The notes beneath the pieces were generated by a model. It made no database searches and had not been told where the DNA came from. It saw only the letters and a list, made by a program, of their open reading frames with translations. 64,000 nt of DNA, taken from IMG/VR virus record IMGVR_UViG_3300005330_000014, positions 128,001 through 192,000 of that record; one strand, given 5' to 3'. This DNA comes from a virus. Its lineage: Duplodnaviria; Caudoviricetes. The translations under genes were made by a program, and so were the position numbers. Numbering within the stretch: position 1 is the first letter of the stretch; every line of letters starts with the position of its first letter. Positions 57 through 56,142 of the stretch are shown piece after piece.

Positions 57-1133
57 TTATTTCTCGGTTTCTTTATTCATTTGTTCAGCTAAGATTTCAC
101 CTATAGACGTATTCAAAACGTTTGGATTTGAAGGAGGTAGCAATAAAAGTGGTTGCCCATCATTATCTAGTTTTAATTTTTCAGGATTTAAATCTAATTC
201 TTTTTGAGTTATTTCATGATCGAAAACCTCAACATATTCCAATTTTTCGTTCTCTAAATCGTGAGAATATTTCAGCCGAGCAGTTAGTCTTATTTGGTCC
301 GGCACAGTCTCTAACTCTCTTATGATATATTTTCTAATTAGTTTCTTGATTCCTTTATGATGTTTTTTGTATAACCATACAAGTTGGCTAATGGATAATT
401 CGCGCGAATAAGGATCGTCCCACAACACATATTTTTTTTTTATAGAATCCAAATCTCCCAATAGTGACATTTCAGACATTCTGTGGGCAACAACTTCTTG
501 AATCGGCCCTTGATATTTAAATGTCTTTTTAGTTCTAGAAAATGATTGCGATGGCAAATATGCTGTTTTTTGCTTAAGTGGTGCGGGCATCCAAATCTTA
601 TTACTATGCCATACTGTTTTTTCTTCATTCCAATGACCTAAAGACTCATTAAAAATATAAAACTCTCCTTTATTATCTAATATTACCATCTTGGAAGAAT
701 TAATATATCTTTCAATTAATTTTTTGAACCACCATGTAGTATAAGCTTCTATGTCTCCAGCAAGTATTTTTCGTAGAATAATGTTATTAAAAACATAAGT
801 GTCACTATGTTCTCCTTTGAAATCCAAATCCGATATTGTTCCATTAAAAGCAAAACATACGTTATCATTAATAGAAAATGGATGTAAGTTTTCAGGGATA
901 ATATGCCCGGACGAACATTTTCTAAAATGAACTAAAATAGGACACCCTGCTGGGATTAATGAGTAAAATTCATGAAAAGCTTTTAAATCTTTGTCAAAAT
1001 CTTTTCTAATAAACAATTGATTATCTTGCATATAAGCAATACCTAATCCATCATTATTTATTTTATAGATACTTTCAAAGGTTTCAAAAGTTTCCCGCTG
1101 AGAGTTAGGTTTATTTACGATAATAAGGCACAT
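57..1133 (-). CDS. Class II (Ntn-type) glutamine amidotransferase with extended C-terminus
   Basis: N-terminal MC nucleophile (MCLII), HFRKCSSG, NLHPF, FNGTI, HSDT match the class II GATase pattern (C1, HxRxAT, HPF, HNG, SDT). Confidence 0.8.
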   Translation of the reverse strand: MCLIIVNKPNSQRETFETFESIYKINNDGLGIAYMQDNQLFIRKDFDKDLKAFHEFYSLIPAGCPILVHFRKCSSGHIIPENLHPFSINDNVCFAFNGTISDLDFKGEHSDTYVFNNIILRKILAGDIEAYTTWWFKKLIERYINSSKMVILDNKGEFYIFNESLGHWNEEKTVWHSNKIWMPAPLKQKTAYLPSQSFSRTKKTFKYQGPIQEVVAHRMSEMSLLGDLDSIKKKYVLWDDPYSRELSISQLVWLYKKHHKGIKKLIRKYIIRELETVPDQIRLTARLKYSHDLENEKLEYVEVFDHEITQKELDLNPEKLKLDNDGQPLLLLPPSNPNVLNTSIGEILAEQMNKETEK

Positions 1134-1160
1134 TGGTAGTGGTGGTTAATTATGGAAATC

Positions 1161-1188
1161 AGACTAGCATCAAAAAGAGGAAAGTCAA
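1161..1188 (-). promoter_or_regulatory. Putative early sigma70-type promoter TTGACTTT-N11-TGCTAGTCT
   Basis: One of five copies with identical 11-nt spacing; 28 nt upstream of the GATase start. Confidence 0.7.
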
Positions 1189-1236
1189 ATTTTCGTTTTT
1201 AGGTGAATTTTTTAATTTAATGACTTAATTATTTAG

Positions 1237-1437
1237 TTATTTGAGATGAAAACTTAATGTCATCACGCTTTCTTTTCGAGGAAACTGGGTAGGGTTGGCC
1301 CACGTTTTGTCTCCAACGAATTTTACTGCAAAATCATCATTCGTTTTAAGCCAAGTGTCTTCTAGAGCGCGGAATTTACCATTAATTTTAATAGCCTCAA
1401 AAATTGAAAGCGTCCATTTTCGTTTGACATTTGACAT
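1237..1437 (-). CDS. Small hypothetical protein
   Basis: 66-aa ORF co-oriented with neighbours, fills the gap. Confidence 0.5.
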   Translation of the reverse strand: MSNVKRKWTLSIFEAIKINGKFRALEDTWLKTNDDFAVKFVGDKTWANPTQFPRKESVMTLSFHLK

Positions 1438-1468
1438 AAAATATAATATTATTTCTCGATACTTGTAT

Positions 1469-2308
1469 TTATATCATGTCCCCGATTTCAATCGATGCGA
1501 TTTCTGAATCTTCCAATAAGCCTTTTAAAAAAACTCCACGCTCTCTAGTGTTATAAGTAAATGGGACTATCTTATTTATTTTTCTAGGAAAAACCTGATC
1601 TAAATCCGCCTTTTTCTCTTTAATAGCCAAATCATAGCAAGGATAACAATGTTTTTTACCATTATACATGTGTCCGTTGCCGTAACCAACGAAAGGCTGC
1701 CCGCATTTTTCGCATTTATCCTTGGGAGGAATAACATAGCTAGGAGTTGAATTATATTTGAATAAACTAATATTTTCGGAGGTTCTAATTCCTTTCCCTC
1801 CACATTCCCACCAGTCCATAACCGGATTAAAAAAGTTAAACTTTCCGTCGTTATTCATTATTACGAAACGGCTGGATGTAGGTAACACTTTTTCCACTAA
1901 AAATTTAAAATAATCAGAACTAGCAGCGGACTTATTACAAAATCCTTTCAATAAGATTAATAAATTAATTGCGTGGCAATATTCAGGTTTATTAAGACTT
2001 GCTTTCATGTCCCAAATACGACCAGTCTGAGCCATAACTAAATCTTGGTCTATACGATACGGGCCACAAAAACCTTTGGTATTTTTTTCTGTGTAAGGTT
2101 CTTTAGCTATATCAATTAAACAAGAATGAGTTTTATTCTGTTCGTATAATTTAAGCAAGGAGTCGAATTGCTTGAAGTTTTTACGAATATATATTTTTCC
2201 ATTTTTAGCTACCGCAATACCATATAAATCCGCCCGCTCATTCTTCATTTTTTCTATTAAAATTTCTGGCAACTCAATATCGGCAGGCTTACAAATTAGA
2301 ATACTCAT
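1469..2308 (-). CDS. Degenerate class II GATase-like protein (no Cys1) with C-terminal CxxC motifs
   Basis: YGIAVAKNGKIYIRK, GPYRI and SRFVIMNNDGKF parallel the intact paralogs; starts MSILICK; CEKC/CYPC near the C-terminus. Confidence 0.55.
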   Translation of the reverse strand: MSILICKPADIELPEILIEKMKNERADLYGIAVAKNGKIYIRKNFKQFDSLLKLYEQNKTHSCLIDIAKEPYTEKNTKGFCGPYRIDQDLVMAQTGRIWDMKASLNKPEYCHAINLLILLKGFCNKSAASSDYFKFLVEKVLPTSSRFVIMNNDGKFNFFNPVMDWWECGGKGIRTSENISLFKYNSTPSYVIPPKDKCEKCGQPFVGYGNGHMYNGKKHCYPCYDLAIKEKKADLDQVFPRKINKIVPFTYNTRERGVFLKGLLEDSEIASIEIGDMI

Positions 2309-2364
2309 AAAAACAAATAATATATTTCAATAATTTTAAGTTAATTTTTAACTACATACCAATA

Positions 2365-2931
2365 CTAATCGCGGAATCTCATATTCATATAGTCATATTC
2401 TTCATCAGGATCATAATGTTTATATGGTTTGCCATAAATACCATAATGAATTCCATTATAAATATATTTACTATATAAATGGTAAAAAGTAAATTCTCCA
2501 TTATTATTTAACAAAGCGATTGGAACTACTTTAGATATTGCTTCATCTAATAAATATCCAAAATTAGTTTGAGTAGGGTCTTTAGTAAGCTTACAAAACT
2601 TATCCAATAACGCAGATATGTTTAATAGATCAATACTATCTTTTGAATCAAACACAACCGAGTATTTGCCGTGGCAAAAGAAAATTGGCTCAACCTCTCT
2701 TTTGACAATACTAATCAAGGCTGCATAATTTTCCTTGTTAAGCCAATCAATTGTTTTTACTAATTCTCTGACTGAAGAGATTTTAATAAATCCTAGCGTT
2801 GATTTTTCGGAGCAATAAGCATATACAATATATATAAAATAATTGCCAATTGTTTGGTTATTTTTGGTTTCGATATTTTCTAAAATATCATCGAAATCTA
2901 ATTCAGCATTTTTTACTTTTGCTATAAACAT
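2365..2931 (-). CDS. Highly diverged GATase-like protein (tentative)
   Basis: IALLNNNGEFTFY resembles the LALLDNEGKI / MVILDNKGEFY segment of the paralogs; catalytic motifs absent. Confidence 0.35.
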   Translation of the reverse strand: MFIAKVKNAELDFDDILENIETKNNQTIGNYFIYIVYAYCSEKSTLGFIKISSVRELVKTIDWLNKENYAALISIVKREVEPIFFCHGKYSVVFDSKDSIDLLNISALLDKFCKLTKDPTQTNFGYLLDEAISKVVPIALLNNNGEFTFYHLYSKYIYNGIHYGIYGKPYKHYDPDEEYDYMNMRFRD

Positions 2932-2971
2932 AAGTTTAGGTTTAAAATTTTAGTTTAAATCTTAAACTATA

Positions 2972-4582
2972 CTATTTAATAGCTTGATTGTAAGTTTTAG
3001 TATAAAAAGACTTAAATTCGTCGTTGGCATCGAAAAACTTATATAAGTAAGGATAATCTTGTCTGTTTTTGCAAACAAATTCATAGAAGAACACCCAGCT
3101 TGCCATATCTTTAATCGAAGCATTACCGGGGCGGCAGAAATCGCACAAAGAGGCCACGAAATCTATGTTTTTCAATAACTCATTTTTGTCTTTAGTTGAT
3201 CTGAAAATTCTAAATTCTACTGTTTGACCGTTGCTAGATTCAAAATTCACAGCAGTTCTATGATCGAATTTAAGTCTAATAACTTCCCCAGCCCCAGAAA
3301 CGATATGCCCATTTTTAAATTGGAGGCCGCGAGTTGTAGTAAAGTCACTAAACATATTTGCTTTACGACCGGCCATAATCTCAATAAATTGTCTATTGTT
3401 GGGGTTATGAATAAACGTCATTAATTTAGAGGCGGCAAGACCATAACCGCTCTGCCCTAGAGTTTTACCGTACCAATCATCTCCATGAGTTAAAGCATTT
3501 TTACTAATATGAATATGGCACCCGCAGCCCGTTCCCCGATCAGCCCCTTGTTGGGGAGGTTGATAAGGAGCGCAATAAATACTATCATTATTTAATATAG
3601 CCTCAAAGAAACTATTCCACGCTTCGCGATGATATTTAATATCAGCGGGGCAAGAAACCACTTCAAATCCCATTTGTAATGTGCCATCCCTCTTAATAAT
3701 AGCTTTTAATTCGCTCTTTTTAATTACTTCATCGGCATCAATCAAACCGCGACCATAATTGTCTCTAACTTCGTATTCTAATTCTACTCCAATTAATTTT
3801 GGATGTACTCCGCTTGCCGTAACAGAAAAAGAGTTAATATCTTTATCACCGAAAGCGGCTTTTGTAATCTCGCTAACTAATTTATTAGAAGAATCGCTAA
3901 TATGTTCTTTAAAATGGCGCTCGCTTCTATCAGTATAGGCTTTCAGAATAATTCTAGAAGCATTTCCCTGACAATTACCGCAAAATCCTTTATAAAAGTT
4001 TTTAGAATTTTCAAAGTTATGCTGACAGTATTTACATGTAACAATCTTTTTTGCATCAAAACAAGATTTGCAGCAATTACCAGAATTTCCATTATTTAAA
4101 ATAAAAGGAACATAAGAAGATAAACTATTTACTGTTATCTTTTTTTCACATAAACTGCATTTCATATCTAAGCTTGAATCTAAACTTGAATCTTCGGTTT
4201 CAGTTACCGTGAAATAACTATTACCATAAATTGATACGGAGGGATTAATAGGTCTACGTAAAGGATGTTTAATCTCATTATTACTTTCATCAGAACAATC
4301 TTCCTCTTGAGAGTCTGCCCTTTTTTCCGAAACTTTAGGGGCTCGTGTTTTAATTACTTTGCTCCCTCTAACTACTGAATTATATTTAATTGGACGAGGC
4401 TCTTTCGGGGCAGACGCCTTAGCATAACTCAATTCTTCGTTCTGAGCCGGAATAGATTTCTTTAATTCTCCTCTCTTTGTTTCTAATTCCTCAATGCGCT
4501 CGCGAAAACTTCTCGATGCAGTCTCGACGTAAGGCTTTACGGTAATAGAAGGTTTTGATTCGATATTTTTTTCTTCAGACAT
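2972..4582 (-). CDS. Putative amidoligase (COOH-NH2 ligase, glutamine-synthetase-like fold) with Cys-rich N-terminal region
   Basis: IGVELEYE, KRDGTL, GFEVVSCP, GCGCHIHIS, VEFRIFRST match the Amidoligase_2-type pattern; CSLC, CCKSC, CKYC, CGNC upstream. Confidence 0.8.
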   Translation of the reverse strand: MSEEKNIESKPSITVKPYVETASRSFRERIEELETKRGELKKSIPAQNEELSYAKASAPKEPRPIKYNSVVRGSKVIKTRAPKVSEKRADSQEEDCSDESNNEIKHPLRRPINPSVSIYGNSYFTVTETEDSSLDSSLDMKCSLCEKKITVNSLSSYVPFILNNGNSGNCCKSCFDAKKIVTCKYCQHNFENSKNFYKGFCGNCQGNASRIILKAYTDRSERHFKEHISDSSNKLVSEITKAAFGDKDINSFSVTASGVHPKLIGVELEYEVRDNYGRGLIDADEVIKKSELKAIIKRDGTLQMGFEVVSCPADIKYHREAWNSFFEAILNNDSIYCAPYQPPQQGADRGTGCGCHIHISKNALTHGDDWYGKTLGQSGYGLAASKLMTFIHNPNNRQFIEIMAGRKANMFSDFTTTRGLQFKNGHIVSGAGEVIRLKFDHRTAVNFESSNGQTVEFRIFRSTKDKNELLKNIDFVASLCDFCRPGNASIKDMASWVFFYEFVCKNRQDYPYLYKFFDANDEFKSFYTKTYNQAIK

Positions 4583-4628
4583 ATAATTTAATGGTTAATA
4601 ATTTTGTTTGACTTAGTTTTATTGAGTT

Positions 4629-5492
4629 TTATTTACTTGTCGCGTTGATAGTATCTAAATAATGATCTACCTCTTCGAGTTCATCAGCGGGGATTTCTTC
4701 TAAATTAACAAAATCTTCTGCTTCAGATTCTAAACGTAATGTTTCTGCCATGCGGTCTGCGGCATCTAGTTCATTTTCAATATCTACTACATTATCTTCA
4801 TTACTGTCATGCTCTGGAAAATCAGGGTCCACCGGATGATTAACTATTCTAATTAGTCCGCCGCCCGTTCCGCTATTTTGCCTATGAGGATTAGGGCCAA
4901 AATAACTATTATTTATATTATTATTTGTAAATCTTTCTTTAATTTCTTTATAATATCCGTTAGATGCCCAAATTACTCCTTCTTCGATCCATTCCCCGCT
5001 TTCCTCATTAATTATTTCGATTTTTCCCTCGTTATCTAATAAGGCTAATTTATTTCCTTTCCCAATGGCATTTTTAACAAACCACAAAAAACCTTTATTT
5101 CTCCACCATTTCCTTTTCGGGTTATCATTATCAAAACCTTTTAGGATAATTTCTCCAAATCCAAAGGTATCGCTCATTCCAGCAAATTTAGAACTAAAAT
5201 AATGTAAAACTCCATTATGGCAAAAATGCAAACGGTCTGAAATTACAAACGGGTGGCAATTAGCTTCATTTTTGGCTCCACTGGTGGCAAATCGGGCGTG
5301 GACGATAATTGGACAACCAATAGTTTTTTTGTAAGCTTCATACAATGAAGCAAAATCAAAAAATCCTTTTTCTATATGAATAGCCCCATCTTTAAAATAA
5401 GAGAAGCCCGCTCCATCTCCGTTTGAATTAACAATGTTTTCCAGAAATTCCGCCGGTAGTTCTTTTCCAGTCGATGTTAGAATAGTACACAT
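4629..5492 (-). CDS. Class II glutamine amidotransferase with acidic tail
   Basis: MCTIL, NGDGAGF, HARFATSG, NCHPF, HNGVL, MSDT. Confidence 0.85.
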   Translation of the reverse strand: MCTILTSTGKELPAEFLENIVNSNGDGAGFSYFKDGAIHIEKGFFDFASLYEAYKKTIGCPIIVHARFATSGAKNEANCHPFVISDRLHFCHNGVLHYFSSKFAGMSDTFGFGEIILKGFDNDNPKRKWWRNKGFLWFVKNAIGKGNKLALLDNEGKIEIINEESGEWIEEGVIWASNGYYKEIKERFTNNNINNSYFGPNPHRQNSGTGGGLIRIVNHPVDPDFPEHDSNEDNVVDIENELDAADRMAETLRLESEAEDFVNLEEIPADELEEVDHYLDTINATSK

Positions 5493-5540
5493 ACGATTTA
5501 ATACTGATTTATTTCGTCTTTTTTGGGTTATGTTGAAATC

Positions 5541-5568
5541 AGGCTAGCATCCAAATCTGAAAAGTCAA
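5541..5568 (-). promoter_or_regulatory. Putative early promoter TTGACTTT-N11-TGCTAGCCT
   Basis: Same motif and same flanks (AAAAACGAAAAT 5', GATTTC 3') as the copy at 1161-1188. Confidence 0.7.
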
Positions 5569-5635
5569 ATTTTCGTTTTTTTCGCCTGAGCTTTTAGTTT
5601 ATCTAAATTTATTGATTTGTTTCAAGTAAAGCAAA

Positions 5636-6052
5636 TTACCACGGGAGAGCTTCATCTCGATATTCCTCTTCAAGAGATTCTAAGATTTCGTCTATTTCAT
5701 CCGCCTCTGACTTGACAATATTCTTTTTATGTTTAACTGACCTAGATTTTCCTTTATCTTTATCTAAAACAAACATGTCGGTTAGAGGATGATTATGATA
5801 AAAACCAGCTTTTAATTCTTTGTTTATAGGTTTGATTTCAGTATCTAAAATCAGGCTTAAGATATAATAAGATATTCTCCATTTAGAAAAACCGGGGACT
5901 ATCACGGTATTACTCTGACTGAAAGTATTTATTAGGTATGTATTTTTACTTTCGCAACTAAATATTTCTACGATCTCTCCCCAAGACTTATGGAAAGCTT
6001 CTTTAACAGAAAATCTCGCGCCCGGCTTTAGTAATGTTCCAAGATTATTCAT
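5636..6052 (-). CDS. Hypothetical protein carrying the HNHPLTDMF motif
   Basis: 138-aa ORF; motif at 5771-5797. Confidence 0.7.
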   Translation of the reverse strand: MNNLGTLLKPGARFSVKEAFHKSWGEIVEIFSCESKNTYLINTFSQSNTVIVPGFSKWRISYYILSLILDTEIKPINKELKAGFYHNHPLTDMFVLDKDKGKSRSVKHKKNIVKSEADEIDEILESLEEEYRDEALPW

Positions 6053-6139
6053 AGAAATTTTAAATTTGTTTTATAAAACCTTAAATTCAAAATCATGTAA
6101 TTTAAGTAGAATAACATCAAATATGAAAAACAAAAATAA

Positions 6140-6555
6140 ACATCGCGGCAACAGTTAAGACACCACAAGCCTGTCTCGAAAGAGAGTGGACATTAAGGAC
6201 ATTTTTCCGAAAGGCGAACCACGGTACTTCAGGAGCGCGAGCCGTCATTACTTAATGAAAAATTTGCAGAAACTTAGCGGGAAACGCAAGGGCAAAAATC
6301 CTAAACAAGTAGACATAGTTGAAATTATTCTCATAGTTTAATGTAGTTATCTAGCCTAATCCCCGATAAAAAACGGGAAGGAACCTACTGTAATGACGCT
6401 ATATTAAATAATATATTTTATTTGTATTGACCGTAAGGTTTAATATAGTGGACTTTTCATGTTCTAACGAGTTTCCGCAGGGCAATATCATTAAACTTTA
6501 ATAAGGTACAATCAAATAATAAAAACGCAGTTTTTAAACCGTAATGTAGGTTAGT
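6140..6555 (+). ncRNA. Candidate large structured ncRNA (unidentified)
   Basis: ~500-nt ORF-free gap with GNRA-capped hairpins on + (TCTC-GAAA-GAGA, CC-GAAA-GG, ACC-GTAA-GGT) and long-range complementarity CGTCATTAC/GTAATGACG; boundaries approximate. Confidence 0.45.
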
Positions 6556-7527
6556 TTATATATCTGAACCGCCCGGGAAATGATCTTGACAAACAATTAA
6601 TGGATTTCTTTTTGGCGGCGCAGCGTCTAATACTTTTTGTGCAATTATTTTTTCTTGAAGAATCTTTAAATATTTTGCTATATTATTTTTTGCTGCCTCT
6701 TCATATTTCAACTTAAAGAAGTCGATAGTGAAAATAGGAGTCTTTTTATTTAATAATTGAGAATAAATTAGTTGCTGATTACGATAAAATTCTTTTTTAG
6801 GTAAATAGGTTGCATCTCTTTGTATTAATTCCTGATTTTCAACAAAAAGATCAAACGGGCAGCCCAACCGAGACAATCTTAAATTTAAGAAAACATTTTC
6901 TTCTGCGCTTAAAGTTGCGTAATTTAAATCGGCGCAAGTCTCAATTAAACGTTGAATATTTTTAACATAAACCGCCGGGAAATTAAAATGTTCTTCCAAA
7001 AAAGAGGCTGCGTCCCTTGCGTGAACAGTAAATGTTCTATTCTTCCCAGAAAAACGATGTAATAAACAAGCGAGAATAACGCTTGCAGATGATTGCTGCA
7101 CAATACTTGCACAGTATTTATCGTTTTGTTTTAATAGAAAATAATAATAACTTAAATTAAAGTAAGGAGAACTATCGGCATTTGATCGAATCTTATTCCA
7201 TAATGGCTCTAAATCTGAAATAGTAATAGATTTTACTATACATAGCCCTTTAGATAGTTGATTATAAATATAATCCATTTGAGCCACCTTATCTGATGGA
7301 CGAAATTCTTCCATAGCTCTTTTTCTATCGTCTTGCGCTCTATCTAGTTTTAATCGATCAATCGCCATTTTTGCTTCTGGTGTAGTTTGTTCTATTGCTG
7401 TTTGGGCAATTTCAACTTCTTGTGCTTTAACAACCATATATTTCTTTATTTCGTTTTCTTGTATTTTTCTTTGAATTCTTAAATCAAATGTCGTAATTGC
7501 TTTGTGAATTCGTCTAAAAAACTGCAT
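6556..7527 (-). CDS. Hypothetical protein (putative early gene)
   Basis: 323-aa ORF directly downstream of an early-type promoter; no family recognised. Confidence 0.75.
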   Translation of the reverse strand: MQFFRRIHKAITTFDLRIQRKIQENEIKKYMVVKAQEVEIAQTAIEQTTPEAKMAIDRLKLDRAQDDRKRAMEEFRPSDKVAQMDYIYNQLSKGLCIVKSITISDLEPLWNKIRSNADSSPYFNLSYYYFLLKQNDKYCASIVQQSSASVILACLLHRFSGKNRTFTVHARDAASFLEEHFNFPAVYVKNIQRLIETCADLNYATLSAEENVFLNLRLSRLGCPFDLFVENQELIQRDATYLPKKEFYRNQQLIYSQLLNKKTPIFTIDFFKLKYEEAAKNNIAKYLKILQEKIIAQKVLDAAPPKRNPLIVCQDHFPGGSDI

Positions 7528-7536
7528 GATTCCAAA

Positions 7537-7564
7537 ATCCTAGCATCTAAAGAATGAAAGTCAA
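7537..7564 (-). promoter_or_regulatory. Putative early promoter TTGACTTT-N11-TGCTAGGAT
   Basis: Third copy of the motif, 10 nt upstream of the 6556-7527 start. Confidence 0.7.
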
Positions 7565-7632
7565 CTTTTGCCATTTATTTTCTGATTTAATTCAAGAAAT
7601 TTCACGTTTATATAAGATAGAAGGAAAATAAA

Positions 7633-7640
7633 GTGTAAAT
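7633..7640 (+). promoter_or_regulatory. GTGTAAAT motif (putative late promoter)
   Basis: One of seven copies at gene boundaries; immediately precedes the structured segment. Confidence 0.4.
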
Positions 7641-7790
7641 GAGATTGGCAATTAATTGTCCCGCCGCGAGGCAGAACAAAAATCGCTTTATTAAACTTAA
7701 ATGCGAACAAACGGGCCGCTGAACCTTCAAGCGGATGACAAAGCCAATCAAAATCGGCCCGCTTTTCTCAAAATTGACCGATCAAAACAA
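7641..7790 (+). ncRNA. Candidate structured RNA or leader with possible pseudoknot
   Basis: GATTGGC/GCCAATC, GCC-GCGA-GGC, TCGC/GCGA, CCGCT/AGCGG and CGGGCCG/CGGCCCG complementarities within ~120 nt. Confidence 0.4.
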
Positions 7791-7945
7791 AACAATTTTT
7801 CTCTGTAAATTATCATTCTTAAGAATTTTATTGTCTCAAAACTTGATTATGAGTCTCATTAATGTAGATTCGTAAGTGTCTGGTATCCAAATGGTTTGGA
7901 GGCAGGAAAGTAAATTCAACAAAAAAAGGAAGGCTAGGAAAGTTT

Positions 7946-8821
7946 ATGGATAAAAACGCAATTATTAAGCAGTATGAAACAGTGGCTTATTCTCACCCCG
8001 TTCTTAAAAAACAGGAAGAATATGATTTAATTAAAGGGTATAAAAAAAATGGCGACCCTGCGGCCAAGGAAAAATTAATTAACTCCTATTTGAGAACGGT
8101 TATTAATTTGTCGAAAAAATTCGCACACAATAATAACCTTGACATTTTAGACTTAATTCAATCTGGAATCGTGGGAATTGTGACAGCATTGGATGGGTTT
8201 GATTTAAGTCAGTATAAGAAAATAACTAAAAATACAGGAAGCTTGTTCGCTTTTTGGTGCTATCGCCATATTTTATGTGAGATAGATGCATATTATCGTA
8301 ATAACATTCGTCAAGTAGCTGTTACTTTTACTACAAATAACAGGCTATTTAAAATAAACAATATGTATAAACAAGGTTTATTTAATAAATATGAAACATT
8401 GTATGATGATGCTGTAGTTAAACATATCTCAAAAGAACTTAAATTAAAAGATAAAGAAGTAAAACTATTATTAACTTTATTTAAGCCAGCGGTGGAACTT
8501 GACAGAGAGCCAGAAACTTCTGAAAGCGAACACGATAACCACAATTCAAGTTATCAAGATACTATTCTAAAAGATTATTCTGATAATGAAACCCCGGCGG
8601 ATATTTATGAAAGAAATGAAAAGTATGAAGATTTAATTAGTAAAATTGATAACCTTGATAAAGAAGATCGTTATATTATTCAACATCGTTTTGGAATTAA
8701 TTGCGAAGTAGAAAGTTTGTCTGATATTGGCAAGAAAATCGGATGCTCTACTGGAAATGTGGCCGCGCGGACTAAAAAAATTCAAGATAAGCTGAAAAAT
8801 ATGATTACGACTCAAATCTAA
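7946..8821 (+). CDS. Phage-encoded sigma70-family RNA polymerase sigma factor
   Basis: Region 1.2/2-like (EEYDLIKGY, AKEKLINSYLRTV, DLIQSGIVG, FD, FAFW) and region 4 HTH (IIQHRFGI...SLSDIGKKIG). Confidence 0.85.
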   Translation: MDKNAIIKQYETVAYSHPVLKKQEEYDLIKGYKKNGDPAAKEKLINSYLRTVINLSKKFAHNNNLDILDLIQSGIVGIVTALDGFDLSQYKKITKNTGSLFAFWCYRHILCEIDAYYRNNIRQVAVTFTTNNRLFKINNMYKQGLFNKYETLYDDAVVKHISKELKLKDKEVKLLLTLFKPAVELDREPETSESEHDNHNSSYQDTILKDYSDNETPADIYERNEKYEDLISKIDNLDKEDRYIIQHRFGINCEVESLSDIGKKIGCSTGNVAARTKKIQDKLKNMITTQI

Positions 8822-42652: not shown

Positions 42653-42726
42653 TGCAGGTTGGACAAGTAGTTAAGTTGCCGCCCTCATAAGGCGTGAGAT
42701 CGCTCGTGCAAATCGAGCACCTGCAA
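42653..42726 (+). tRNA. tRNA with CAT anticodon (elongator Met or Ile2); CCA not encoded
   Basis: TGCAGGT/ACCTGCA acceptor stem, CGCC-CTCATAA-GGCG anticodon arm, GCTCG-TGCAAAT-CGAGC T arm. Confidence 0.85.
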
Positions 42727-42799
42727 CTCTTTAAATAAGTATTTGGTATTGCGTCGCAGTTTTTATTACAGGTAATTACTGTGGTTAGCTCGCATCACC

Positions 42800-52725: not shown

Positions 52726-55700
52726 ATGGATAAGGTAACTTGCATATTTGGCAGTCATTATAGCTTCAGCGGTTCTAGCATTCTCACGGTTGACGAAGCA
52801 GAGGAAATTAATGAATCTAAACCAGTTTCGGTTTTTTCTATAGCTAAACACTACGAACTAAAAGACGTATTTTTAGCAGACAAAACATTAAGTGGCTTAA
52901 TTGATTCGTATAATGCCGCCGGGAAAATCGGAATCAATCTTCATTTTGGTTTTAAAGTCATTTGTTGCGAGGATATAAATGACAAAAGCGAAAAATCATT
53001 TGAAACTGAACATAAGATAATTGTTTGGTTAAATGATTCGCGCGGCTACGTTAATTTTGTCAAATTGGTTTCAAAGGCACAAATTGACGGGTTTTATTAT
53101 ATCCCCCGCGTGGACAAGAATCTTTTGAAGGAATTTTGGTCGGAACACCTTTCCATCTCAATCCCCTTCTATGATTCCTTTATTCATAAAAATACCTTAG
53201 AGTTCGGCAAGTGTGTTCCCGAGTTTCCCGCCGCCCCAACCCTATTTATAGAAAATAATGGGCTGCCATTCGATGACTTGCTAAAGGAACGGGTTTTAGA
53301 ATATGGCAAAAGCGAAAATCTAGAAATTGTCAATTCTAAATCAATTTACTATTATAAAAACGAAGATTATAAAGCTTATTTAGTAAATAAAGCAATTAAT
53401 AAACGAACAACTTTAGAAAAACCTAACTTAGAACATAATAGCTCAGATCAGTTTTCTTTTGAATCCGCGCAGGAAATTGGAATTGATTACGAAAATAAGT
53501 CAAAGTTTTCTCAATCATTTTCTAAATATAATTTACCGTTTTATGGTATCCGCCTCCCAAGCGTCGATATTACTTCGGAAATTAGAACCAAAATTGGCGC
53601 GAAAATTGATGATGACAATTATACTATTCTAAAAGCTTTATGTGTTACCGGCTTCAAACGAAGAATTGCTGATGGCACAATTCAAGACTCTGAAACTCAA
53701 TGGTATAAAGATAGAATCAAACACGAATTAAAAACGCTAAAAACTCTTGGGTTTGTTGATTATATCCTAATTGTTTGGGATATGGTTAACTTTTGCCATG
53801 ATAACAAAATCCCAGTCGGGCGAGGTAGAGGCTCGGCAGCGGGCTCGGCAGTTTTGTATTTACTGAATATTACTGATATTCCAGTCAAAAGGCATGGACT
53901 TTGGTTTGAACGATTCTTGTCAGCGGATCGCGCGGCGGTAATTATTAAAGATGGTATTTCGTTTTTGCAAGATTCACCTGACGTAGATCAAGACGTTTCC
54001 CGCTCACAAAGATACAAAGTAGTTGACTATTTAAATAAAAAATATCCGGGGCAAACTTCTAAAATTCTCAATATATCAACCTTACAAGGGAAAGTATTAA
54101 TTAAGGAAGTTGCTAAATGCGTGGATAATTGCGAGCAAACTGAACTTAATTTAATTACTGATTTGATTCCAGTAGAGTTCGGGAATGTTGCCGATATTGA
54201 AAGAACGTATAATGAAAATCCTGATTTCAAAACTTGGTGCGACAATCATTCCGAATCTTATAAAATTGCTTTAAAATTGCGTGGACTCGCTAAAAATGTG
54301 TCCGTTCATGCTTCTGGCTATTTAATTACTCACTGTCAAATTAATGAATTTATTCCAACACAACTGACCGCCGATAAAGAGATAGTTAGTTCTTTTGATA
54401 TGTATTCCGCCGGGAATATTGCGGTTAAGATTGATTTGCTTGGATTGAAGACTTTAGATATTTTAGATACGGCTGGCAAATTATGCGACAAACCTTTTGA
54501 TAAAATAAACATTGATGATCCAAGTATCTATAAGTACTTATCAAATCCTGAAGCCCCTTTTATGGGTATATTTCAGGCGGAAGAAGGATTAGGAGAAAAA
54601 ACTTTAAGAAAAATCAGTCCTGAAAAGATTGATCATATTATTGACTCTATTGCAATTGGTCGCCCGGGCGCTATGCGATACACCCAAGACTATTGCGATT
54701 TCAAAACTAAAGTTAAATTTCCTAATATTGATCCTCGCGTCGAAGACATTTTGGGGCCGACTGGCGGACTTTTGATATATCAAGAACAACTCATGGCATT
54801 AAGCGTGAGAATGGCAAAGTTTACTCCAATCGAGTCTGGAGGAATTAGAAAAGCTGTTGGCAAAAAAATCAAAGCCAAAATGCTTTCGTATAAAGAAAGA
54901 TTCATTAAACAAAGTATTGAAAACGATTATTCGGAAGAGTATTCAGAAGATATTTGGAAGACTTTTGAAAATAGCGCAGACTATTCTTTCAATCTTAGCC
55001 ACAGTGCAAGTTATGGCTATTTAACAGCTATTACTGCTTATTTCAAAGCTAACCACCCGAAAGAGTTTTTCTTAGCATTACTTAAAAATGCACAAAATGA
55101 ATCTGAACCATTAACTGAAGTAAACAAAATTCAAAAAGAATTAAAATACTTTGGAATCCAACTGTTACCCCCTTGCTTATTAAAAGGCAATATTGATTTT
55201 GTTATTGAGGGAAACGACATTCGGTTTGGTTTGAATTCTATTAAAGGACTTGGTGAAGCAGTAATTGAAAAACTTAATAATTTCCGCCCGGAAAATTGTA
55301 ATAAATTCCAAATGTTTCAAGCCGCGCGGCAAGCTGGATTGTCTTGCGGTGCAATGGCGGCGCTTGTTATGTCCGGCGCTTTGGATATATTTGTTAAAGA
55401 ATCTCGCAGTAAATTATCATTTGAATGCTTACTTTTCTCTAAACTAAAAGACAAAGAAAAACTATTTTGTATTGATAATGCTCCACAGTATAATGATGAC
55501 TTAATTACAATGTGTCAAGATATTCTGAATTGGCATGACTCCCGAGGGAAAAAAGTCGCACGCTCTACCCGTTTAAATACTCTCAGAAAAGAAACTAAAA
55601 AGTATCAAGAAATCTATAGGAATAACAAAGCCAATCAAGCTTTAAGTAACTATTGGTACGAAAAAGAATTACTTGGGTTCGGCTATTCTAGCAATCTAAA

Positions 55701-56142
55701 AACAATATTTAGTGAGTCGGGCAGCCGCACGGACTTAATTAACTTGGAAGAATACCAAAATCTTGACCCTAATAAAACCGGAATCGTTGTTTGTATTGTT
55801 GATGATGTTAAAACTTCAATTTCTAAAAAGGGTAATGCGGTGATGAAATTGTTTGTTAGCGATGAAACTAAATGTAATTACTTTTATTTCGCGGGCAAAT
55901 CTTACCAAGAATATCTATCAGAAAACAAGACGCCACCTAAAGAAAAGGATATTATTGCAATTAAATTAATGAAATCCAAAGATGGAACTTCAGGATTTGT
56001 CCAAAAATTATCCATTCAATCAGTGAAAATCTTCACGAAAATGTCGGAAATTAAGGATGCCCCACTTGAAAACACAGAGGAAAACGAAATAATTGTGCAA
56101 AAAATCGCAGAAAACCCACAAACGGAAATGATATATTCCTGA
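52726..56142 (+). CDS. dnaE: DNA polymerase III alpha subunit (C family) with PHP domain
   Basis: SHYS PHP start, GRGRGSAAGS, FERFL, PDVDQD, HASG, KIDLLGL, IYQEQ, YSFNLSHS, IRFGL..IKGLG, C-terminal OB fold. Confidence 0.95.
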   Translation: MDKVTCIFGSHYSFSGSSILTVDEAEEINESKPVSVFSIAKHYELKDVFLADKTLSGLIDSYNAAGKIGINLHFGFKVICCEDINDKSEKSFETEHKIIVWLNDSRGYVNFVKLVSKAQIDGFYYIPRVDKNLLKEFWSEHLSISIPFYDSFIHKNTLEFGKCVPEFPAAPTLFIENNGLPFDDLLKERVLEYGKSENLEIVNSKSIYYYKNEDYKAYLVNKAINKRTTLEKPNLEHNSSDQFSFESAQEIGIDYENKSKFSQSFSKYNLPFYGIRLPSVDITSEIRTKIGAKIDDDNYTILKALCVTGFKRRIADGTIQDSETQWYKDRIKHELKTLKTLGFVDYILIVWDMVNFCHDNKIPVGRGRGSAAGSAVLYLLNITDIPVKRHGLWFERFLSADRAAVIIKDGISFLQDSPDVDQDVSRSQRYKVVDYLNKKYPGQTSKILNISTLQGKVLIKEVAKCVDNCEQTELNLITDLIPVEFGNVADIERTYNENPDFKTWCDNHSESYKIALKLRGLAKNVSVHASGYLITHCQINEFIPTQLTADKEIVSSFDMYSAGNIAVKIDLLGLKTLDILDTAGKLCDKPFDKINIDDPSIYKYLSNPEAPFMGIFQAEEGLGEKTLRKISPEKIDHIIDSIAIGRPGAMRYTQDYCDFKTKVKFPNIDPRVEDILGPTGGLLIYQEQLMALSVRMAKFTPIESGGIRKAVGKKIKAKMLSYKERFIKQSIENDYSEEYSEDIWKTFENSADYSFNLSHSASYGYLTAITAYFKANHPKEFFLALLKNAQNESEPLTEVNKIQKELKYFGIQLLPPCLLKGNIDFVIEGNDIRFGLNSIKGLGEAVIEKLNNFRPENCNKFQMFQAARQAGLSCGAMAALVMSGALDIFVKESRSKLSFECLLFSKLKDKEKLFCIDNAPQYNDDLITMCQDILNWHDSRGKKVARSTRLNTLRKETKKYQEIYRNNKANQALSNYWYEKELLGFGYSSNLKTIFSESGSRTDLINLEEYQNLDPNKTGIVVCIVDDVKTSISKKGNAVMKLFVSDETKCNYFYFAGKSYQEYLSENKTPPKEKDIIAIKLMKSKDGTSGFVQKLSIQSVKIFTKMSEIKDAPLENTEENEIIVQKIAENPQTEMIYS

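Follow-up and report, generated by a model that had tools for sequence, protein, structure and literature searches.

A candidate structured non-coding RNA gene with co-varying alternative pairings in three related jumbo phages

Results

The locus and its open gap

The window analysed here, 64,000 nucleotides long, comprises bases 128001-192000 of a 208-kb phage record from IMG/VR with a G+C content of ~32%. The two DNA runs that contain it are both rhizosphere metagenomes, and the strain in them is identical, without variants. Close to the start of the window lies a run of genes on the minus strand; from the sigma-factor gene at 7946 onward all genes are on the plus strand. The features of the region are:

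57-7527, minus strand: gene run with GATase paralogs, an amidoligase, the 138-aa orphan and the 323-aa protein
5636-6052, minus strand: 138-aa orphan gene, the upstream neighbour, divergent from the candidate RNA
6053-6137: AT-rich spacer between the divergent 138-aa gene and the candidate RNA, upstream of both
6138-6486, plus strand: candidate ncRNA gene, conserved core of ~350 nt, homologous to elements at two other loci, L094 and L187
6487-6555: 3′ spacer to the convergent gene, with a hairpin AAAAAC-GCA-GUUUUU at 6521-35
6556-7527, minus strand: 323-aa gene, convergent with the candidate RNA

The gap between the two genes (6053-6555), which an earlier note made from the sequence by itself had called exceptional, is the largest stretch in the 64 kb without an ORF of at least 60 aa on either strand. 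TAA, TAG and TGA each close all six of its frames, so no reassignment of a stop codon would open it. The G+C content is 0.40 at 6100-6400 compared with ~0.30 in the flanks, and the plus strand is A-rich.

Motifs and folding of the window sequence

The earlier note had read the following motifs as elements of a large RNA, and a script check of the coordinates found every one of them in its place:

6163-66 and 6186-89, plus strand: CCAC and GTGG, enclosing TCTC-GAAA-GAGA (6174-85), with the bulge AAGCCTG at 6167-73
6230-33, plus strand: CAGG, the partner of the bulge
6207-14, plus strand: CC-GAAA-GG
6273-90, plus strand: CTT-A-GCG-GGAAA-CGC-AAG
6362-77, plus strand: CCCG-ATAAAAAA-CGGG
6430-39, plus strand: ACC-GTAA-GGT
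6243-51 and 6390-98, plus strand: CGTCATTAC and GTAATGACG, a 9-bp long-range inverted repeat
6382-88 and 6547-53, plus strand: AACCTAC and GTAGGTT

Within the window sequence alone these motifs are not beyond chance. By our own estimate ~0.5 perfect 9-nt inverted repeats are expected per 500 nt, and the minimum free energy of 6053-6555 gave z scores of -0.56 on the plus and -0.28 on the minus strand against shuffled controls. The elements taken singly behave in the same way, with z scores of -0.56 for the window core (6138-6490) and of -1.49 and -0.51 for the two relatives, none of them significant. The earlier note had itself named a folding energy no better than that of shuffled sequences as evidence against its proposal, and for single sequences (z -0.5 to -1.5) this is what was found. 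It is through the comparison with two homologs, described below, that the element rises above chance.

Searches for known RNA families

A cmscan search against Rfam 15 returned no matches at the gathering score in the window or in the related loci L086, L088, L089, L091, L094 and L187, and only unrelated weak noise at E≤10 on 6000-6650 and at E≤5 on L094 and L187. A covariance-model match to ROOL, GOLLD, OLE or the other large RNAs of Rfam 15 is thereby absent from the window and its relatives. For MISL, no family of any name was matched, the presence of a MISL model in Rfam 15 being unconfirmed. ARAGORN reported a tRNA-Met (42653-42727) as the only such gene in the window and no tmRNA. The note's failure to match the sequence to a group I or group II intron, RNase P, tmRNA or 6S is borne out by these empty searches. 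Introns of both groups, RNase P and 6S were rejected on the Rfam result, and the element in any case lies between complete genes and interrupts none. A decayed gene was also rejected, as tblastn with the small proteins of the relatives gave nothing in the window gap. A search of the 208-kb genome for complementary sites gave no convincing trans-targets.

Homologous elements in syntenic loci

Several routes to relatives were unproductive. There was no match in GenBank phage DNA to the window locus or to the element of L091 (see below), and scans of IMG/VR with single proteins (the two flanking proteins, the sigma factor and DnaE) gave no relatives. A word-indexed protein search with the 323-aa protein returned itself alone. 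Sigma-factor alignment gave one irrelevant locus among metagenome contigs and none among viral contigs. The IMG/VR relatives obtained by DnaE alignment were only ~40% identical, and R1, a covariance model of the 5′ domain, found nothing in 23 of them. One DNA pattern scan of viral contigs gave no matches; a second gave two viral and 90 bacterial matches, all of which we take to be chance because nhmmer with a profile of the window and L094 recovered none of them.

Two other searches led to syntenic loci: homologs of the sigma factor (42-57% identity) to L086, L088, L089 and L091, and an exhaustive search with a profile of the 323-aa family to L094 and L187. The synteny around the 323-aa homolog extends to all six, with a shared gene order of sigma factor, 323-aa homolog, a variable region and then GATase and amidoligase. 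At L084 (8197-12721) the DnaE polymerase is in two pieces, a 261-aa PHP and a 906-aa polymerase part with a LAGLIDADG-like ORF between them; in the window it is one ORF of 1138 aa (52726-56142). The gap that follows the stop codon of the 323-aa homolog varies in length:

L094: ~540 nt
L187: 646 nt
L091: 530 nt
Closest relative, a 12-kb contig of JGI 3300050046: 430 nt
L088: 259 nt
L086: no gap

Elements homologous to window positions 6138-6486 are present at L094:3841-4236(-) and L187:2241-2570(-), in each case directly downstream of the 323-aa homolog and on the opposite strand to that gene. The neighbouring proteins are only 26-40% identical, and the element retains long invariant blocks, including AUCGCG, CCA(C)CAAGCC, ACUUC.GGAGCGCGAG, UAGUUAUC.AGCC and GACGCUA. 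When 4.3 kb of the window are aligned with L094, the best-conserved 100-nt bin is 6100-6199, with an identity of 0.70, which exceeds that of the sigma-factor and GATase genes. The second-largest ORF-free stretch of the window (7528-7945, 418 nt, between the divergent 323-aa and sigma-factor genes) is poorly conserved in the same alignment, with an identity of ~0.39. The earlier note had placed the element at 6140-6555; that an element lies here stands, but conservation stops at ~6486, which gives ~350 nt (6138-6486) and not 415.

The R1 scores are 121.9 bits for the window, 123 for L094 and 88.3 for L187, and the next best hit reaches 14. These three sequences are its seeds and match by construction, so that the independent evidence is the covariation. 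R1 found nothing further in the window, in 16 related loci or in the whole 208-kb genome, in which the element is single-copy. Two relatives lack it, L086 having no gap and L088 having the 259-nt one. The family so far consists of three sequences from environmental metagenomes, the window member being from a rhizosphere sample.

The promoters presumably sit in the spacer 6053-6137, a role that we infer for it; compared with L094 and L187 its sequence is not conserved, has no common motif of at least 8 nt and shows no upstream promoter motif. On the other side, the hairpin at 6521-35 may act as a terminator. The spacer 6487-6555 shows no conservation in L094 or L187, and a terminator scan detected no terminator-like site. 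An imperfect, AT-rich direct repeat of 44 nt (6088-6131 and 6483-6526, 70% identity) flanks the conserved core; it may be due to chance, because neither L094 nor L187 shows anything equivalent.

A different element in the same slot

At L089:5741-6050(+) and L091:5556-5975(+) the syntenic slot is filled, in the same orientation, by a different conserved element. The two copies are 68.6% identical over 140 nt (E 1e-13), the adjacent proteins being ~25% identical, and they show compensatory changes of their own (GUCGGG/CCCGGC versus GUCAAAG/CUUUUGAC; CCGAGC/GCUCGG versus CCGCG/CGCGG). There was no Rfam match for this element, which we treat as different because neither R1 nor nhmmer detects it. 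L086, the locus without a gap, has a G+C-rich patch at 6500-6535 (GTAGCCGCGCG.AATCG), within an ORF called as 92 aa; the patch matches the L089 element in its 5′ part over 17 nt at 94% (E 0.03) and may be a remnant.

ORFs have been called over the non-coding elements at L089:5688-6032(-), giving 114 aa, and at L094:3779-3925 and 4160-4315(-), giving 48 and 51 aa. These calls look spurious because the L089 'protein' can be matched to the L091 gap only by reading across an in-frame stop. Gene callers thus appear to have put spurious ORFs over these elements.

The 5′ domain

The pairings of the 5′ domain, given here with window coordinates, are:

6143-6240, plus strand: 5′ domain, in which P1 closes a junction of P2, P2a and P3
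6143-47 and 6236-40, plus strand: P1, invariant
6163-66 and 6186-89, plus strand: P2, CCAC/GUGG
6174-77 and 6182-85, plus strand: P2a, with a GAAA loop; UCUC/GAGA changes to GCU/AGC, and the helix is not evident in L187
6203-08 and 6213-18, plus strand: P3, with a GAAA loop
6170-73 and 6230-33, plus strand: pseudoknot of the bulge CCUG with CAGG, 12 of 12 cells paired
6448-53, plus strand: distal GUGGAC, which repeats the 3′ strand of P2 with its flank (6186-91), repeat D4

P3 has three different sequences in the three phages (UUUUCC/GGCGAA, UUCCCUC/GAGGGAG and UUUUGUU/AGCAAAA). The pairing of the bulge, proposed in the earlier note as CCTG with CAGG, is CCCG/CGGG in both L094 and L187, a change of U-A to C-G. 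Also among the pairings of that note, CCAC/GUGG with its inner hairpin, the CC-GAAA-GG hairpin and CCCG/CGGG (P10, below) are preserved by base changes in the relatives. On a MAFFT alignment (A9) the 5′ domain including the bulge pairing has 87% of its cells paired, compared with 34-54% when the 3′ partners are slid, and six pairs are altered on both sides, a number equalled in 1 of 500 shuffles. The covariation shows the 5′ domain as a predicted pseudoknotted junction made up of P1, P2/P2a and P3 with a pseudoknot from the bulge to J3/1.

Either copy of GUGGAC, that at 6186-91 or that at 6448-53, can pair with CCAC. The GUGGA of the distal copy is invariant in all three phages; in L187 CCACC forms the 5′ strand and GGUGG the distal copy. 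An 11-codon ORF at 6123-6158(+) ends at an invariant AACAGTTAA in J1/2 and has 14 codons in L094; it was rejected as coding because it is absent in L187.

The 3′ domain

The helices of the 3′ domain were aligned by hand and are less certain than those of the 5′ domain:

6243-46 and 6395-98, plus strand: P4, long-range helix CGUC/GACG, the conserved part of the 9-bp pairing
6353-60 and 6433-40, plus strand: P9, which encloses P10 and P11
6362-65 and 6374-77, plus strand: P10, CCCG/CGGG in the window, CUUG/CAAG in L094, CCG/CGG in L187
6406-10 and 6414-18, plus strand: P11, AAAUA/UAUUU in the window, AAUCC/GGAUU in L094

P4 is what remains of the long-range pairing CGUCAUUAC/GUAAUGACG of the earlier note: its first four base pairs are conserved, but the other five are specific to the window. 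In both relatives P4 is CGUU/GACG, the change from C-G to U·G being compatible with the plus strand only. P9 is AGCCUAAU/GUAAGGUU in the window and a perfect 10-bp CCAGCCUUGA/UCAAGGCUGG in L094, and is not evident in L187. Two further pairings of the note, AACCTAC/GTAGGTT and ACC-GTAA-GGT, are present in the window and are not conserved in the homologs. A perfect 10-bp inverted repeat (CTATATTAAA/TTTAATATAG, 6399-6408 and 6439-6448) is peculiar to the window phage and overlaps P11 and the 3′ strand of P9. The comparison shows a predicted 3′ domain with several hairpins (P10 and P11) and long-range helices (P4 and P9).

A strand with two co-varying partners

Between the 5′ strand of P4 and the end of the conserved core one strand is complementary to two others:

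6264-67 and 6273-81, plus strand: S0 and S1, the switch strand, UUGC...CUUAGCGGG
6285-95, plus strand: S2, the local partner, forming the GGAAA hairpin with S1, extended by UUGC/GCAA
6474-85, plus strand: S3, the distal partner, a near-identical direct repeat of S2, 190 nt downstream

The S1:S2 hairpin is found in all three phages with different sequences (GCG/CGC, GGCG/CGUC and GCGA/UCGC). The unit repeated in S2 and S3 is CGCA(A)GGGCAA in the window, CGUC(A)GGGAAGAA in L094 and CGC(C)AAAGACAG in L187; within each phage S2 and S3 are near-identical, S2 always having one extra base. S0/S1 changes in step with both, GG/CC becoming AA/UU in L187 and UUGC/GCAA becoming CUGU/ACAG. On the MAFFT columns 85% of the S1:S3 cells are paired, although L187 is off by two bases. 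Taken together with P10 on the MAFFT alignment, S1:S3 has 87% paired compared with 42-59% when slid, and S1:S2 has 80% compared with 27-57%. S0/S1 (6264-81) is thus shown by the alignment to be complementary to two near-identical, co-varying predicted partners, S2 and S3. As S1:S3 and P9 cross P4, two global folds are possible, and the co-varying partners suggest two alternative folds. Alternatively, S2 and S3 might both be recognised by the same protein or by the same trans RNA.

Covariation and strand

Of the 61 positions in the hand-aligned table of all helices, 25 are compensatory, 6 have changed on one side, 25 are invariant and 5 are broken; the compensatory count is inflated because many such positions lie in hand-aligned hairpins. 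The collection of homologs and check for covariation that the earlier note had asked for has in this way produced two homologs with compensatory changes in most of the proposed helices. RNAalifold on an anchor-guided alignment of the three sequences gave a z score of -5.4 on the plus strand (equalled in 0 of 150 column shuffles) and -4.0 on the minus strand. An untouched MAFFT alignment of a pair gave -2.1 on the plus strand, and the 3′ domain gave -2.7 on the plus strand versus -0.56 on the minus strand. The 13 G·U cells of the helix table, the U·G of P4 among them, would all be A·C if the minus strand were read, and it is on the plus strand that the loops have the sequences GAAA and GGAAA. 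From these cells and loops we conclude that the plus strand is the functional one, in agreement with the note's reading of the element as antisense to the flanking genes.

The adjacent 323-aa gene

The 323-aa protein belongs to a large family without a Pfam name (3644 matches at E<1e-3), many members of which have ~210 aa. Its AF2 model (pLDDT 92) is all-alpha, and Foldseek relates it to HD-superfamily phosphohydrolases in AFDB with E values of 2e-9 to 1e-5 and TM scores of 0.5-0.6; against the PDB it matched PDE domains, with E values of only 2e-3. A conserved His/Asp motif was not found in the family. The element always lies immediately beyond the 323-aa homolog's stop codon, with spacers of ~70 nt in the window, ~38 nt in L094 and ~9 nt in L187. 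Since it always faces the 3′ end of this gene across a short spacer, a cis-antisense relation of the RNA to the 323-aa gene is possible.

Discussion

It would seem likely that 6138-6486 is the gene for a structured ncRNA of ~350 nt on the plus strand, of an undescribed family found so far in three related jumbo phages. Such a gene would probably be transcribed as a unit by itself, convergently with the 323-aa gene and divergently from the 138-aa gene. The earlier note had offered ROOL, GOLLD and MISL as families worth testing, or a new one. No Rfam 15 family matched, and the option of a new family is supported because, in addition, two syntenic homologs show compensatory changes. We class the element as a new family within a known kind, the phage-encoded structured ncRNA.

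The region might act as DNA, as a regulatory or replication-related element in which S2/S3 and GUGGAC are protein-binding sites. Two pairs of short direct repeats keep their positions, the region sits between transcription units and the single sequences have no thermodynamic signal. Binding sites, however, do not explain the compensatory changes in P2a, the pseudoknot, P3, P10, P11 and S1:S3 or the strand asymmetry of the G·U pairs, and the repeats vary between the phages yet stay complementary to S0/S1, so we regard this explanation as unlikely. The functional strand might also be the minus strand, with the region serving as a structured 3′ UTR or intercistronic part of an operon mRNA that runs from the 323-aa to the 138-aa gene. 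Both flanking genes are on that strand and the alignment beats its shuffles there too (z -4.0), but the 13 G·U cells would turn into A·C mismatches, the GAAA and GGAAA loops would become UUUC, and the z scores are better on the plus strand both overall and in the 3′ domain (-2.7 versus -0.56). We consider a minus-strand element quite improbable.

It is very unlikely that the transcript is the mRNA of a very small protein with a hok-like fold-back. The candidate frame runs from an ATG at 6255 to a stop at 6339-6341 (28 codons in the window), is open for 24-28 codons in the window, L094 and L187, where its product would have a short hydrophobic tail behind a basic stretch, and the alternative 5′ and 3′ pairings recall those of hok mRNAs (PMC3851714). 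Against this, the start codons differ (ATG, TTG and GTG) and have no Shine-Dalgarno sequence, the tail of only 6-8 hydrophobic residues is not that of a membrane protein, the frame spans less than a quarter of the conserved element, and S3, which lies outside it, co-varies with S1 inside it; by our estimate it is not unusual for a frame to stay open over such a length by chance. A divergent member of a known large family (ROOL, GOLLD, OLE, group I or II introns, RNase P, tmRNA or 6S) is hardly to be expected. The element is phage-borne, several hundred nucleotides long and GNRA-rich, like many ROOL and GOLLD loci, but Rfam 15 is empty at the gathering score, with unrelated noise at E≤10, for the window and both homologs, and ARAGORN found no tmRNA.

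Returning to the plus-strand ncRNA, its complementary strands would allow two mutually exclusive folds. Fold A would consist of P4 and the S1:S2 hairpin, fold B of S0/S1:S3 and P9, crossing P4. The outcome might be a conformational switch, or folding by way of an obligatory co-transcriptional intermediate with the fold-back logic of hok. The output, at a guess, would be regulatory and tied to the adjacent convergent gene whose 3′ end the RNA faces. We put forward only tentatively that the element is a two-state switch. Equally speculative is the idea of a new class of RNA switch, in which a pseudoknotted, sensor-like 5′ domain would be coupled to a 3′ domain of 240 nt that toggles between folds A and B, both of them preserved by covariation, and so controls how the convergent HD-like gene is expressed or how stable its message is, or another step of the phage programme. 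In an alternative reading, the duplicated strands might mediate RNA-RNA multimerisation, as in the assemblies of ROOL and GOLLD.

ROOL and GOLLD have sizes of roughly 600-800 nt. Like them, the candidate is a phage-encoded intergenic ncRNA of several hundred nucleotides with many helices, GNRA loops and no coding capacity; at ~350 nt it is smaller, has no Rfam 15 match, does not adjoin tRNA genes and is known so far from three related phages. Many ROOL and GOLLD loci are themselves phage-borne, several hundred nucleotides long and rich in GNRA loops (10.1101/2024.12.08.627333). The hok mRNAs have fold-back pairings (fbi, tac and ucb) and transient hairpins (PMC3851714, PMC6733600). The likeness is that a single strand has a choice of two conserved partners, a local one and another close to the 3′ end, whose pairings exclude each other and are both maintained by covariation: S0/S1 can pair with S2 or with S3, and both co-vary, which is a mechanistic analogy and not membership. 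The element differs from hok in having no credible toxin ORF or known antisense partner. A hydrophobic ORF with a ribosome-binding site was not found, the frame of 24-28 codons being the only one shared. In addition, its shared strand is internal and not at the 5′ end, so that the analogy is functional and implies no homology.

The element also resembles a riboswitch in its compact pseudoknotted junction with invariant joining regions, followed by a region of alternative pairings. In contrast to riboswitches, no regulated ORF or terminator was found directly downstream on the same strand, the next plus-strand ORF of at least 60 aa being the sigma factor at 7946, which is ~1.4 kb distant on the far side of the convergent gene; the 'platform' has ~240 nt, and no known aptamer family was matched. 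Cis-antisense RNAs of the lambda OOP type come from genes that run convergently towards the 3′ end of a protein gene. The candidate gene has the same arrangement, with a spacing that shrinks to ~9 nt in L187. Unlike OOP, it is much larger and highly structured and does not overlap the coding sequence (a gap of ~70 nt in the window), and its conservation tracks internal base pairing and not complementarity to the gene.

To our knowledge, phages have yielded only a small number of large structured RNAs, and what ROOL and GOLLD do is still open. The element described here adds a compact candidate, supported by covariation and without an Rfam match, from an uncultured jumbo phage clade with its own sigma factors. 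Its main interest lies in the internal co-varying repeats that would compete for one strand, a rare sequence-level signature of what may be a programmed conformational change, and this pattern of competing repeats is testable in vitro without the host.
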